Shown in pieces: positions 33,357-37,512 of a stretch of DNA of 64,000 bases; positions within the stretch are counted from its first letter, which is position 1, and each line of letters starts with the position of its first letter. Origin of the DNA: Chloroflexaceae bacterium (GTDB lineage: Bacteria > Chloroflexota > Chloroflexia > Chloroflexales > Chloroflexaceae); contig DAOTUI010000072.1 in assembly GCA_034437035.1 (NCBI GenBank), forward strand, positions 55,107 to 119,106, in the 5' to 3' direction. The notes beneath the pieces were generated by a model that had not been told where the DNA came from, did no database searches, and was given only the letters and a program-made list of their open reading frames with translations. The position numbers and the translations under genes were made by a program.

Positions 33357-34154
33357 CTATCCACGCTCCGCGCTATAGGCCGCAACTGCCGCAACTTCCA
33401 GACGGGCCAGTTCCAGCCGAAACGCCCAGTTCTGCGGGTCAGCATCCATCCGGGCAATCCATGCCGCTGCTCCCCCCAATGTTTCAAGCTCATCAGCATA
33501 GCGATCCAGCGTCTCAAACTCCAGTCCTTCGGTTTCACAGTAGCCCATCCGCAGATCGGATATGCGCTGCAAAAAGAGTGGCCACGAGCAGTCACTGCCG
33601 ACGGTATCGTCCCGGCACTCAGCCACGATATGCTGTGCTGCGCGACGCGCGAGCCCCCGCGAGGCGGCCGTTACATCCCAGGGCAGACCACTCACGGTGG
33701 CAAAGACATGGTTTACAATGCCTTCGGTGTCACGCTGGATTCGGGGGTGCGAGTCAAAGGCGCGGCGCGTTCGCCCCAGCACAGTAAAATCATACTGCAA
33801 GAGTGTATCAAGTATCAGCCGCAGTTCATCGGGATAGTATTCCGCCCAGTGCAATACCCGGTCAAAGTCACAGAAGTGGATATGGGTGGCCTGCGGTACA
33901 TTCACCAGAGCCTGCTCAACGGCAAGCCGCCGCCACAACCCCAGATGCAAATGGCCCTGGGGTAAATCGGCCCCGCCACTACTAACATATGCACCGGTTG
34001 CCTGAAGCAACGAACGTGACGCCGGTAGCGTTGCCGGTGTCACCAGAATAACAATAGAGCTATAGATTTCGTGCAGCAGTGGTACTATGCGCGCAGTCTG
34101 ATCATAGAGGCGTCCATCAGCGTCATGGTGTGTTGCGGCGAGTGCAACCGTCAT
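33357..34154 (-). CDS. Hypothetical protein, no motif recognised
   Basis: 265-aa ORF with coding-like codon usage, in the same orientation as and 61 bp upstream of the DapA-like gene. The antisense ORF 33249-33965 is rejected. Confidence 0.5.
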   Translation of the reverse strand: MTVALAATHHDADGRLYDQTARIVPLLHEIYSSIVILVTPATLPASRSLLQATGAYVSSGGADLPQGHLHLGLWRRLAVEQALVNVPQATHIHFCDFDRVLHWAEYYPDELRLILDTLLQYDFTVLGRTRRAFDSHPRIQRDTEGIVNHVFATVSGLPWDVTAASRGLARRAAQHIVAECRDDTVGSDCSWPLFLQRISDLRMGYCETEGLEFETLDRYADELETLGGAAAWIARMDADPQNWAFRLELARLEVAAVAAYSAERG

Positions 34155-34282
34155 GCCACCACCCTTTCGAGGTAGTTCAGATTTGAGGAATAGCAGGACA
34201 CGGAGACTCCGTTGTGGAACGATGGATCAAATATTGATCGTCTACCAGGATAATGCGGCTATTATAGCATACACCGAGATAC

Positions 34283-34318
34283 CACAAATGGCCTCGGCAA
34301 TTGCCGAGGCCATTTGTG
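34283..34318. repeat. Perfect 34-36 nt palindrome (CACAAATGGCCTCGGCAA|TTGCCGAGGCCATTTGTG)
   Basis: Read directly. It has no flanking T-run on either strand. It lies between the hypothetical gene start and the tandem array. Confidence 0.7.
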
Positions 34319-34433
34319 TACTGTCTTTGTCGCCAGCTAACGCATCGCGTAGCAACGTACTGGTCTTTTGACTAAAATTTGTGCGTTGGATTCTTTAAAG
34401 CATACCGTAGGTTTTGTGCTGTGACGATGACTG

Positions 34434-34889
34434 AATGTCGTGTTGTAACGCTAGTACGATGTCGTGTTGTAATGTCGTGTTGTAACGCTAGTACGATGTC
34501 GTGCTGTAATGTCGTGTTGTGCTGTTGTGCTGTGACGCTGGTACGATGTCGTGCTGTGCTGTTGTGCTGTGACGCTGATACGTTGTCGTGCTGTGCTGTT
34601 GTGCTGTGACGCTGATACGTTGTCATGCTGTGCTGTCGTGTTGTGACGTCGTGCTGTGATACTGGTACGATGTCGTGCTGTAATGTCGTGTTGTGATGTC
34701 GTGCTGTGATACTGGTACGATGTCGTGCTGTAATGTCGTGTTGTGATGTCGTGCTGTAATGTCGTGTTGTGATGTCGTGCTGTAATGTCGTGTTGTGATG
34801 TCGTGCTGTGATACTGGTACGATGTCGTGTTGTGACACTGGTACGATGTCGTGTTGTGATGCCTGCTGTGACGCTCCTACGACACGTTA
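34434..34889. repeat. Compound tandem array: about 24 units of 13 bp (ATGTCGTGYTGTR) punctuated by about 9 units of 11 bp (AYRCTRGTACG)
   Basis: Manual parsing of the run. The plus strand is G+T rich. All minus-strand frames are open, which produces spurious ORFs such as 34372-34899. Confidence 0.85.
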
Positions 34890-35177
34890 CAAGAACCAAA
34901 TACTTCTGGCGTTTGACAGTTCTCGCTCCGGGGAGAGTTCGTTATTGTTGTTGTGCGATGTCCCGTTGCATCTATAGGATAGCATGCCGGTCCTTCTGGT
35001 TCAATGAGGCATGGGTCTTGAGCGGAGTACACCACAGGTACCATGACCATGCTGACCATAAGTACCAGGGTAAAGTTACAGGTTGTTCATCGTTATAGCT
35101 CAACACTGAGGGCAATGCCCCCGGCGCAAGTGAACAGTTTATCACATTTATCCTGCAAGGCACGCCTGCAACCGGCG

Positions 35178-36041
35178 TTATCGGCCACCGGCCGCGCGTA
35201 CAAAACGGCGCACCCGTTCGACATCAACCGGGTTGGCAATTACCCCATCCGCTTTGATGCTGCTGCCGACAATCACCCCATCGGCGACCTCCATGAACGC
35301 GGCGATGTTCTGCTCATCGGTTCCGCTGCCCAGAAGAATGGGGCGATCGCCGGCCAGTGCGCGTGCCTGGCGCACCTTCGCCAGATCCGGAGCATCACCC
35401 GTCATCCGCCCGGAAATGATGAGCGCATCTGCACCAGAGAAGCGGGTCCACTCGATATGCGTTGCCAGGTCGATGCCGGGGAAGCGCACCGAATGCTTTT
35501 TATCGACATCGGCAAAGATTTTAACATGTTCGGCGTGCAGTTCCTTGCGCCGGCGGAGGAGATCCGCCGCGCAGCCTTCGTCCCAACTACCCGCATCCCA
35601 GACGCCCGCGCCGGTGAACATGCAGACGCGGATAAAACCGGCTCCAGATGCCACGGCAATTCCCAACAGCGCTGTGCCGCCATTATGGACCAGATTGATC
35701 CCCAGCGGCAGGTCAACCGCTGACTTCACGGCATGCGCGACGACTGCCTGTGCTGCAATACTCTCCGGCTGGATATGCGGACCGGCCCGGAACGGGATGT
35801 CCCACATATTCTCGACAATCACGCCATGACAGCCACCAGTTGCCAGCGCCTGCGCATCACGTACGGCATGCGCGATAATGGTATCCATGCCATAGCCGGT
35901 ATAACCTGGTGCGCCCGGCAAGGGCCAGCAGTGAACCATGCCGATAACTGGTTTGGGTGTGCCAAAAATCTCACCGAGATCCTGGATTTGCAGGCTGTCA
36001 AGATAGGTTTTCCATGGTGGTGTCATATATCTGATCCTCAT
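35178..36041 (-). CDS. BtpA/SgcQ-family TIM-barrel protein
   Basis: KPVIGMVHCWPLPGAPGY and the overall BtpA-like pattern. The start could be ATG 36041 or ATG 36026. Confidence 0.8.
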   Translation of the reverse strand: MRIRYMTPPWKTYLDSLQIQDLGEIFGTPKPVIGMVHCWPLPGAPGYTGYGMDTIIAHAVRDAQALATGGCHGVIVENMWDIPFRAGPHIQPESIAAQAVVAHAVKSAVDLPLGINLVHNGGTALLGIAVASGAGFIRVCMFTGAGVWDAGSWDEGCAADLLRRRKELHAEHVKIFADVDKKHSVRFPGIDLATHIEWTRFSGADALIISGRMTGDAPDLAKVRQARALAGDRPILLGSGTDEQNIAAFMEVADGVIVGSSIKADGVIANPVDVERVRRFVRAAGGR

Positions 36042-36051
36042 GTTTCAATAA

Positions 36052-36268
36052 CAGGACGTACGCGGTGTGCGTGCAAACGGACCGTTTGCTCTCGATAACG
36101 GCGTATTTCGCCTGCGGCAGCATGGTACGTTTTTGTCTTTTTCCGAAACATGTGGCTCTCCGAGCCACATGTTTCGGAAAAAGACTGTCCCATTCCACCC
36201 TGCCGGAGGCGCATCGGGCCAGTTGTCCAGGCAGACGCCTGGGTTGGGAACCAACCGCGTAACTCCTG
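36052..36268 (-). mobile_element. MITE-like repeat copy B1 with perfect 7-bp TSD TCAATAA
   Basis: TIRs CAGGACGTACGCGGT / ACCGCGTAACTCCTG. TSD at 36045-36051 and 36269-36275. Central 24-bp perfect palindrome at 36135-36185. Confidence 0.9.
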
Positions 36269-36276
36269 TCAATAAT

Positions 36277-36450
36277 ACACGTTACGGGGTCACTGACCCG
36301 ACAGGAGATTCCGCCTCCGACAGGGCAGAAGAAATCATCTTTTTTCACAAAAATTTTGTAAAAAAAGATCAAAAGTACCATGCTGCCGCAGGCGAATCGG
36401 GCTTTTGGTTGGTCAACAGACCGAAATAAGGCTGCACCGTGTAACGCGTG
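36277..36450 (+). mobile_element. MITE-like repeat copy B2 (shortened, degenerate central palindrome)
   Basis: Arms TTCCGCCTCCGACAGGGCAGAAG and GTACCATGCTGCCGCAGGCGAA. The central stem is reduced to about 14 bp with 1 mismatch. Confidence 0.7.
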
Positions 36451-36457
36451 GAAATAC

Positions 36458-36527
36458 CAGGACGTACGCGGTGGATGGTCAAACCGGACGTTTGACCAGA
36501 TGGAAGCCAGACTCGCCTGCGGCAGCA
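36458..36527 (-). mobile_element. Half MITE copy B3 (one TIR, CAAAC hairpin and one arm), abutting the pfkB-family stop codon
   Basis: CAGGACGTACGCGGTGGATGGTCAAACCGGACGTTTGACCAGATGGAAGCCAGACTCGCCTGCGGCAGCA is near-identical to the left part of copy A, then the match stops. Confidence 0.65.
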
Positions 36528-36537
36528 GAGATAGCGC

Positions 36538-37512
36538 CTAAAAATGCAGCAGATGCTGCAACGACGGCGCCAGCCGGCGGCGCAACTCGTCCCGACCGGG
36601 CAGGGCATCGGCCGCCCCCGGCCGGGTTGCCGTCAATGCCCCCAACATATTGCCGAGAAGCGCGCTCTCGTGTATACTCCCATGGTGAAGTAGCGCCCAG
36701 GCACACCCGGCAGCAAAGGCATCGCCGGAAGCGGTTGTGTCAATGGCCGTGACCGCCGGGGGACCGGCCTGCAGACGCTGGTCGCCGGTGGCAAGCGTAC
36801 ATCCCCGGCGCCCCTGCTTCAGGGCGAGATAGCGCCCCCCGTAACGCAACAGCGTGGTGACCGCCGTGACACGCTCCTGTCCCGGTAGCAGCAGGCACAG
36901 CTCATCTTCATTCAGACAGAGCAGCCACAGCCGGGGCAGAAGTTGGAAGATATCATCCGGGCACCGGCGAATCGCGGGAGTACTCAGGTCAAGCACGATG
37001 GGCACGCCCTGCGCGTCGGCAAGCTCAACTGCGCGGAGTGCGGCATCACGCTGGGCACCTTCGAGCAGCGCATGCGCGCTCAGGTAGAGAAGCTGAACGC
37101 GCATCAGCAAATCGGACGTAACCGCCGTGGCGTCAAAGGCAACATTCGCGCCACGAAAGCTAAACATGGTGCGCTGACCGCCGGGACTAATAATGGCGGC
37201 ACAGGTGCCGGTAGCAAGGTATTCATCTTCCTGAATCAGGCTGATGTCAATGCCCCGCTGATCTGCTACGCGCAACGCCACGCCGGCCGCCGGATCACGG
37301 CCAACCCGACCCAGTAGTCGGGGATGACCACCCAGCACGGCAAATGTGACAGCCGCATTCAGCGCGGAACCGCCACTGCCCCACCGCAGTGACCGGGCGG
37401 TGCAATCGTCACCCTCGACCGGGTAGGATGGGATAATCATGGTCATATCCGCGTTAATGTCACCAAGAACGGCGATGTTTGTTGTACGGCTGGTCAACAT
37501 AGGTTCAATCAT
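36538..37512 (-). CDS. PfkB-family carbohydrate kinase
   Basis: DTTASGDAFAAG (DTxGAGD) motif and N-terminal VLGDINAD. Start is uncertain: 37512, 37500 or TTG 37536. Confidence 0.8.
   Translation of the reverse strand: MIEPMLTSRTTNIAVLGDINADMTMIIPSYPVEGDDCTARSLRWGSGGSALNAAVTFAVLGGHPRLLGRVGRDPAAGVALRVADQRGIDISLIQEDEYLATGTCAAIISPGGQRTMFSFRGANVAFDATAVTSDLLMRVQLLYLSAHALLEGAQRDAALRAVELADAQGVPIVLDLSTPAIRRCPDDIFQLLPRLWLLCLNEDELCLLLPGQERVTAVTTLLRYGGRYLALKQGRRGCTLATGDQRLQAGPPAVTAIDTTASGDAFAAGCAWALLHHGSIHESALLGNMLGALTATRPGAADALPGRDELRRRLAPSLQHLLHF

Follow-up and report, generated by a model that had tools for sequence, protein, structure and literature searches.

A conserved non-coding RNA gene predicted around a variable tandem repeat array in Chloroflexales

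A compound tandem array downstream of btpA

The window analyzed here, a stretch of 64,000 nucleotides from the genome of a Chloroflexaceae bacterium (referred to as G000), contains a tandem array of short repeats in the ~1020 bp that separate an upstream btpA-family gene (35178-36041; Pfam BtpA, E=1.1e-71) from a downstream orphan gene encoding a protein of 265 amino acids (aa) (33357-34154), both genes being on the minus strand. An initial annotation of this DNA had placed a compound array of 13-bp and 11-bp units directly 3' of btpA, and the array is indeed found there, with positions 34435-34881 tiled without gaps by 25 13-mers, 10 11-mers and one 12-mer (34859-34870). The 13-mer ATGTCGTGYTGTR is present in 18 exact copies, or 21 when one mismatch is allowed, all of them on the plus strand between 34435 and 34858, against 0.28 expected from 100 shuffles; allowing up to two mismatches brings the total to 25 (18 exact, 3 with one mismatch and 4 with two). 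The 11-mer AYRCTRGTACG occurs in 7 exact copies within the array, against 0.19 expected, and in 10 at up to two mismatches.

The 13-mers form runs of 1, 2, 3, 2, 2, 3, 3, 7, 1 and 1, each closed by an 11-mer. The order described in the initial annotation, two or three 13-mers followed by one 11-mer, therefore fits most of the runs but not the run of seven, and the 26-bp unit that it had seen in the alternation of C/T and A/G variants was found at 34720-34810. Tandem Repeats Finder reported periods of 13, 37 (13+13+11), 50 (3x13+11) and 87. Because the units abut one another without spacers, the array is not of the clustered regularly interspaced (CRISPR) type, as had been concluded before. Its plus strand is GT-rich and its minus strand CA-rich and G-poor; in the minus-strand sense, the units read as 25 copies of YACARCACGACAU, 10 of CGUACYAGYRU and one 12-mer, with 31-44% C and 17-20% G, and fold predictions leave them single-stranded.

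A genome-wide search for the 13-mer, suggested by the initial annotation, revealed no second site for the full unit in the 7.39-Mb assembly. A 25-mer made of two array units had one exact match elsewhere, isolated within an unrelated contig of a metagenome-assembled genome (MAG) of Paraburkholderia (L013, 2270-2294), which is probably a coincidence.

Architecture of the predicted RNA gene

Reading of the btpA strand in G000 and in its relatives indicated that the array is very probably the middle domain of a non-coding RNA gene conserved in Chloroflexales, as predicted from sequence. The earlier description had missed that the array would be the center of a conserved minus-strand gene with a promoter and a terminator of its own. 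The predicted transcription unit runs on the minus strand from ~34971 to ~34280 (~690 nt) and comprises, in this order, direct GTAC boxes, a promoter, a 5' hairpin (P1), the array, a 3' box and a GC-rich terminator hairpin.

The upstream direct repeats (35008-35066, minus strand) consist of box A, GGTACTT (35066-35060), box B, GGTACCT (35042-35036), and a third related box, GACCCATGCC (35017-35008). They are kept in position and sequence at 28 loci from ~14 genus groups, and also at L087 and L088, two loci of another family described below. In G000, this promoter architecture occurs once only; the GTAC repeats are probably an activator or operator site. Next to them lies a sigma70-like promoter (34976-35004, minus strand), in which 17 nt separate the -35 element TTGAAC (35004-34999) from an extended -10 element, TGCTATCCT (34984-34976), with a predicted transcription start at ~34971-34969. 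In ~28 loci, the corresponding pattern, TTGnnn-N14/15-TGnTAnnnT, lies 185-640 nt upstream of the 3' box. In some genera, only a few bases separate the btpA stop codon from box A, which makes operon read-through likely in addition, and transcription probably also enters the RNA from btpA.

Within the putative transcript, hairpin P1 (34929-34965; CGGGA...UCCCG around a CA-rich loop) forms part of the minimum-free-energy fold in G000. It is followed by the 5' strand of a long-range closing helix (34883-34920), whose segments ACUGUC, CGCCAG and UAACGUGUC pair with GAUGCGUUA, CUGGCG and GACAGU in the 3' strand (34320-34346) at -24.9 kcal/mol. Between these strands lie the array and the invariant 3' box of ~16-18 nt, ACCAGUACGUUGCUACGC (34347-34364). 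A perfect GC-rich palindrome at 34283-34318, which had been listed earlier as a separate finding, is read here as the putative intrinsic terminator of the RNA. Beyond it, the end of the RNA unit is marked by the motif TGCTATAAT (34261-34269, minus strand), apparently the extended -10 element of a further promoter, that of the 265-aa gene; the motif is also present after the terminator in the g1, g2 and g9 lineages. The properties generally sought in a bacterial small RNA (sRNA) gene, namely its own promoter, an intrinsic terminator and conservation across species, were all found by prediction at this locus.

The word (C)CAGTAC / GGTAC recurs in the upstream DNA boxes (35036-35066), in the 3' box (34347-34364) and in the 11-mer CGTACCAGTAT, in the last case in this genus only.

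A predicted long-range helix clamps the array into a single loop

The most telling structural feature is the long-range helix. In every lineage, the stretch after P1 pairs with the stretch after the 3' box, with energies of -22 to -43 kcal/mol and with different sequences: CGCCAG/CUGGCG, ACUGUC/GACAGU and UAACGUGUC/GAUGCGUUA in G000, GGUUAGA/UCUAACC in g5, GCUCAGGCUCC/GGAGCCUGAGC in g24 and a perfect helix of 15 bp in g13. When the 5' strands of 15 genus representatives were compared with all 3' strands, the own 3' strand was the best partner in 9 and among the top four in 14, and matched pairs had a mean energy of -29.1 kcal/mol versus -21.5 +/- 4.5 for cross-genus pairs. The helix was also predicted by RNAalifold on array-deleted constructs (alignment A4), where it was 92.7% paired, versus 24-47% when the partner was slid, with compensatory changes in 9 of 15 pairs and observed values that none of 500 shuffles reached. 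As this helix closes around both the array and the 3' box, the two elements sit in one giant loop held by a clamp of 15-25 bp.

Covariation extends to the other flanking elements. The terminator hairpin was 99% paired across 27 sequences, with compensatory changes in 9 of its 11 pairs and values not reached by any of 500 shuffles, and the P1 homolog called by RNAalifold (GUGAGCGA...UCGCUCA in most genera) was 83% paired, with 5 of 7 pairs compensatory. The columns of the 3' box were invariant in alignment A3. A local hairpin P2 (YYRGA-CUGAnnn-UCYRR) was 77% paired; it is an alternative pairing at most, since it uses the same bases as the better-supported long-range helix. A helix between columns 55-62 and 101-108 of alignment A1 was discarded, being weak and 68% paired.

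The array itself is nearly devoid of pairing on the sense strand in G000. The predicted fold of that strand has -50.2 kcal/mol over 447 nt (z=+2.28), which is weaker than the fold of 99 of 100 dinucleotide shuffles, whereas the antisense strand reaches -151.5 kcal/mol (z=-4.1). Across the family, the sense arrays have folding energies of -0.03 to -0.22 kcal/mol per nt and positive z values in 15 of 22 cases, versus two to three times stronger folding of the antisense strand. Complementarity of the 3' box or of the repeat unit to 16S rRNA was no better than that of shuffles, and no identical or complementary copies of the 3' box were found elsewhere in G000.

Distribution of the RNA and of its repeats

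A 16-nt pattern derived from the 3' box, CAGYACGTTGYTACGC, was found in 40 of 78 genomes of the family, once or, rarely, twice per genome, and its reversed control gave no matches. A covariance model of the 3' domain (R1) detected that domain in 52 of the 78, nearly always as a single copy, representing 15 of 22 genera. Order-wide, R1 hits were obtained in 42 of 61 genomes of family f1, 15 of 61 of f4, none of 15 of f2 and none of 13 of f3. The f4 carriers include 8 of the 10 genomes of genus g24, two of them complete, which we take to be Roseiflexus sp. RS-1 and R. castenholzii. The loci of these two genomes (L087 and L088) show the boxes, promoter, P1, 3' box and terminator described above, with ~3-4 repeats only. 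The predicted RNA is on the plus strand in both, at ~3,087,174-3,087,444 in the presumed RS-1 genome and at ~3,693,600-3,693,835 in the presumed R. castenholzii genome.

All related loci contain homologous arrays. In most genera, the unit is 24 nt long and consists of CAGCACGACAUCG followed by CAGCACCGUCC, while other genera have runs of 11-mers or super-units of 23, 37, 50 or 70 nt; the comparison points to the compound 13+11 = 24-nt unit as ancestral. A core, CAUCGCAGCAC, is common to the repeats of 9-12 of 14 genus groups.

Two g15 genomes carry a second, diverged copy of the RNA in a different context (G041, contigs C605 and C768; G044, contigs C20 and C59), whose 3' box reads CAGCACGTTGCTACGCAyTGTGCGCGCTGG.

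Rfam 15 returned no meaningful match at E<=1 for window positions 33800-36700 or for L087 and L088, and no description of this RNA was found in searches of the literature on sRNAs and non-coding RNAs of Chloroflexi. Given these two negative searches, the predicted gene would encode a previously undescribed, widely conserved non-coding RNA of Chloroflexales. The Chloroflexi-1 motif (RF01698), for which Chloroflexus aggregans is the only reported source, differs from this RNA and was set aside.

Repeat number differs between near-identical strains

The initial annotation had suggested a hypervariable variable-number tandem repeat (VNTR), and array length does differ between strains and between species. 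Lengths were measured between the same anchor sequences in G000 and in relatives, some of them found with the 265-aa protein as query. The reference array of G000 measures 433 nt, versus 383 nt in GCA_964638505.1 (L098), which has 0 mismatches to G000 in 1200 flank bases, and 157 nt in the congener G002, a different species. Within the lineage of G004, whose own array is 148 nt long, the lengths are 98 nt in L094 (which has the same 265-aa protein as L091), again 148 nt in L093 (also with the same 265-aa protein), 198 nt in L091 (2 mismatches to G004 in 1400 flank bases) and at least 219 nt in L092 (0 mismatches to G004 in 700 bases of 3'-side flank). The steps are of 50 nt, that is, 3x13+11. 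Copy number thus differs between near-identical strains, as in a VNTR, with the caveat that short-read assemblies can collapse repeats. The array of G000 is the longest among the complete loci measured, and repeat number ranges from ~3 to the 35 counted here.

Contigs or unitigs often end inside the array or the terminator palindrome (L095-L097, L101-L103, G075:C364, G092:C62, G005:C32, G042:C1135 and G086:C297). Repeat counts and array lengths taken from assemblies thus represent lower bounds, and assembly collapse could account for some of the differences. Because assemblies often break in the array, the RNA gene is easily missed or truncated in MAGs.

Genomic neighborhood

In most genera, the genes for a PfkB kinase, BtpA, the RNA, the 265-aa protein and a DapA-like aldolase follow each other in this order on the same strand. 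In g6 and g12, the RNA follows BtpA and the downstream genes are missing; in g5 and g2, BtpA is elsewhere and the RNA precedes the aldolase; in g7 and g24, the RNA has other neighbors, several of them sugar-related. With a convergent or unrelated gene next to it, the RNA is a stand-alone unit in g6, g12 and g24. A link between the RNA and the adjoining genes of sugar metabolism may exist.

The 265-aa protein has no match in Pfam, NCBIfam, PADLOC or PDB. It was found in 33 of the 78 genomes of the family, with 47-97% identity, usually between the RNA and the DapA-like aldolase. The gene is absent from the RNA carriers g6, g5, g7, g12 and g2 and occurs in g11, g20, g14 and g18, in which no RNA was detected; the two are therefore not obligatory partners. 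A CDFDR motif in the protein hints at a GT-A-like glycosyltransferase.

In the G004 lineage (L003, ~2400-2790; L091), an insertion of ~376 bp separates the btpA stop codon from the GTAC boxes. Its ends resemble a dispersed MITE-like repeat (MITE, miniature inverted-repeat transposable element), and the RNA promoter is intact.

A possible multivalent decoy

From the observed gene architecture, conservation, RNA-level covariation, unstructured repeats and copy-number variation, we infer that the repeats are bound by some factor. The explanation that we favor is a non-coding RNA gene whose repeat array acts as a multivalent decoy. Transcription would start at the conserved sigma70-type promoter, where the upstream GTAC repeats suggest a dedicated regulator. 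The 5' hairpin would then fold, the long-range helix of 15-25 bp would clamp the array and the invariant 3' box into a large loop, and the transcript would end at the intrinsic terminator. In this loop, the CA-rich, G-poor repeats would remain unpaired and present one short motif (family core CAUCGCAGCAC) in many copies, which could titrate a sequence-specific factor that binds single-stranded RNA, in the way that CsrB and RsmZ titrate CsrA and CrcZ titrates Hfq. Slippage or unequal exchange in 50-nt steps would change the number of repeats and thereby set the capacity of the decoy, and the invariant 3' box may provide a second recognition site, perhaps a nucleating one.

A decoy is favored by the anatomy of the locus, which combines a 5' hairpin, a clamp, an unstructured loop, a repeated motif, a terminator, a regulated promoter and occasional paralogs; the paralogous copies in two g15 genomes and the stand-alone RNA of g6, g12 and g24 are features typical of decoys. 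We consider the account as a whole evenly poised between right and wrong, and the decoy or sponge mechanism on its own a possibility that falls slightly short of that balance.

Several results weigh against this account. Transcription of the RNA is itself something that we infer from sequence. The promoter matches 8 of 12 consensus positions plus the TG and was not called by a simple consensus scanner, so that its support comes from conservation and not from the match score. The U-tail of the terminator is weak on the sense strand in G000 (AUUUGUGGUAU) and the scanner called a terminator on the plus strand only, so that here too the case is made by conservation, with clear sense-strand T-runs following the hairpin in other genera. 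On the side of the partner, neither Hfq (PF17209) nor ProQ was found in G000, no binding partner was identified, and CsrA (PF02599) was likewise not found in this genome, which is 97% complete, whereas it was detected in control genomes. Proteins with an RRM_1 domain, whose frequency here is unusual for bacteria, number four in G000 (C146:16974, C75:27735, C128:38643 and C186:535) and are present in 61 of 61 f1 genomes, but they are found in none of 10 genomes of g24, which has the RNA, and are present in g29, which lacks it. Given this mismatch, RRM_1 proteins are not an obligatory partner. Repeat numbers from ~3 to 35 imply that a fixed stoichiometry is not required, and some of the expansion seen in G000 could be neutral. 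Finally, the next gene of some genera begins ~30 nt past the terminator, which also fits a cis-acting leader. KhpA/B and Rho are encoded in the genome, which is uninformative about the partner; these proteins and cold-shock proteins are presumably possible candidates.

Alternative explanations

The RNA might instead be a cis-acting leader or attenuator, in which a TRAP-like protein would wrap around the repeats, alter the formation of the closing helix and the terminator and so set read-through into the 265-aa and DapA-like genes. This is unlikely in our judgment, although several features of the locus speak for it: the next same-strand gene of g13, g15 and g5 begins ~25-40 nt past the terminator, preceded by a Shine-Dalgarno sequence and too close to have a promoter of its own, the closing helix has its 3' strand directly next to the terminator, and the RNA lies within a conserved PfkB-BtpA-x-DHDPS cluster. 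On the other hand, g6, g12, g24 and g7 have no co-oriented downstream gene, a separate TGnTATAAT promoter follows the terminator in g1, g2 and g9, including this genome, and no alternative antiterminator pairing was found.

A second, improbable explanation accepts the RNA gene as real and takes the repeats as a tolerated, largely neutral minisatellite, with function residing in the 5' domain, the 3' box and the closing helix. The spread from ~3-4 repeats at L087 and L088 up to 35 here, the steps of 50 nt between near-identical strains and the fact that the 3' box, not the repeats, is the most strongly conserved part speak for this explanation. It does not account, however, for the retention of at least three repeats in every lineage, for the core CAUCGCAGCAC in 9-12 of 14 genus groups despite turnover of the array, or for the family-wide avoidance of structure on the sense strand, which together argue for selection on the motif and on its single-strandedness.

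We assign a low probability, too, to a base-pairing sponge, whose CA-rich repeats would bind GU-rich RNA, either an sRNA, as SroC does with GcvB, or transcripts carrying a dispersed repeat. Single-stranded display would suit base pairing, and the array stretch ACAACACGACAU (11-12 nt) is perfectly complementary to one site in each copy of a dispersed MITE-like repeat, giving 21 matches in G000 against ~3.5 expected for one 11-mer. Against this, the match could be due to chance, at ~1% after allowing for several repeat families, the repeat variant with ACAACACGACAU is genus-specific, the family core differs from it, no other complementary site was found to be enriched, and complementarity to 16S rRNA shows no excess. 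The dispersed repeat itself (...ttcgctcaTGTCGTGTTGTtcgtggtccaaac...cgcgtaac...) occurs in G000 at C5:9153, C33:56771, C34:10503, C41:6819 and ~17 more sites, each with 11-12 nt identical to the plus-strand unit. It is probably the MITE family found at 36045-36537 of the window, and its complementarity to the array could be due to chance or to a target relationship.

A Rho-loading (rut-like) tract, which would recruit or trap Rho downstream of btpA, is quite improbable. Rho is encoded in the genome and the sense strand is C-rich, G-poor and unstructured, as such a tract should be, but a rut site needs neither a conserved motif nor a dedicated promoter, a closing helix or an intrinsic terminator, all of which would be left unexplained.

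The analogy with iterons and centromere sites drawn in the initial annotation, to which operator repeats may be added, places the function of the array in DNA. Short tandem repeats with higher-order structure do resemble iteron and parC arrays, but this possibility is very remote and iterons were rejected. The neighbors are chromosomal metabolic genes (PfkB, BtpA, DapA-like, SDR) with no rep or par genes nearby, the locus is syntenic across genera, base skew is asymmetric between the strands and structure is avoided, apparently by selection, on one of them only, the flanks covary as RNA, and the unit sequence is unique to this site.

Still harder to defend is a type III toxin-antitoxin system. 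In this genome, the order of promoter, tandem repeats, terminator and gene is the ToxIN layout, with a ToxI-like repeat RNA and the 265-aa gene as toxin. This pairing was rejected, given that the protein matches no family in any of the four databases searched, that its gene and the RNA do not co-occur across the 78 genomes, and that the locus shows vertical inheritance and synteny with metabolic genes.

The last alternative, a repeat protein encoded by the 175-aa minus-strand open reading frame (34372-34899), can practically be dismissed: the frame pointed out in the initial annotation is open, but as a trivial consequence of the U-poor composition, units of 11, 13, 37 and 50 nt do not keep it, allele differences of 50 nt with identical flanks, not being a multiple of 3, shift it, no family matches it and the flanks evolve as RNA helices, in agreement with the earlier view that the array does not encode a conserved protein repeat.

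Returning to the decoy, a more specific version of it would make the RNA the founder of a new class, with a clamped giant loop and a CAUCGCAGCAC-type array with minisatellite dynamics that titrates an RNA-binding regulator (or Rho) and so tunes carbon metabolism in a host where Hfq and CsrA were not detected. We put this forward tentatively, as somewhat doubtful. If it holds, changes in repeat number from strain to strain would tune the amount of free regulator and thereby carbon metabolism; a functional role of the repeats would make this a rare example in bacteria of a regulatory RNA dosed by minisatellite dynamics. To our knowledge, no global RNA regulators have been described in Chloroflexales, and a single-copy RNA present across two families offers a handle on post-transcriptional control in Chloroflexota. 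The repeat motif could be used as bait for its partner, and the presumed cultured carriers of the genus Roseiflexus would allow bench tests.

Comparison with known repeat-motif RNAs

Among bacterial RNAs with iterated binding motifs, CsrB/CsrC and RsmX/Y/Z resemble the predicted RNA in being encoded by stand-alone genes that have a sigma70 promoter, preceded by an activator site, and end in an intrinsic terminator (here predicted from sequence), and CsrB/RsmX-type RNAs share with it many copies of one short motif, a copy number that varies between species and occasional paralogs. The motif is different, however, being CAUCGCAGCAC / YACARCACGACAU here and GGA/ANGGA in the Csr/Rsm RNAs, and the sense array contains no GGA units. 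Instead of hairpin loops there is a long unstructured tandem array whose head-to-tail copies vary between strains, and no CsrA gene was detected. CrcZ/CrcY/CrcX of Pseudomonas come close in other respects, with single-stranded low-G motifs, a location 3' of a protein gene, transcription from an own promoter plus read-through (here again by prediction) and a context of carbon metabolism. CrcZ, on the other hand, has ~6 A-rich AAnAAnAA motifs and a sigma54 promoter and acts via Hfq, while the host of the present RNA has no detected Hfq, and its motif is C/A-rich, not of the ARN type, and repeated in up to 35 tandem units. A homolog of Csr/Rsm RNAs or of CrcZ was therefore rejected: neither GGA nor ARN motifs are present, and CsrA, Hfq and ProQ were undetected in G000.

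Other systems share the layout of parts of the locus. ToxI antitoxin RNAs also consist of direct RNA repeats in tandem, with a terminator and then a same-strand gene behind them, but here there is no ToxN/AbiQ-like toxin, the 5' and 3' domains outside the repeats are conserved and inheritance is chromosomal and vertical. The (G/U)AG repeats bound by TRAP in the Bacillus trp leader are likewise short, single-stranded and upstream of a terminator; they are 11 triplets that recur every ~5 nt, and the length of their leader is fixed, in contrast to the 3-35 units of 11-13 nt found here in an RNA that stands alone in several genera. Beyond bacteria, eukaryotic long non-coding RNAs of the NORAD type use repeated units carrying a protein-binding motif for multivalent sequestration, a cross-domain analogy with no sequence relationship to this RNA. 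Taken together, these comparisons suggest that the RNA predicted here belongs among the repeat-motif decoy RNAs, as a new member of that group.

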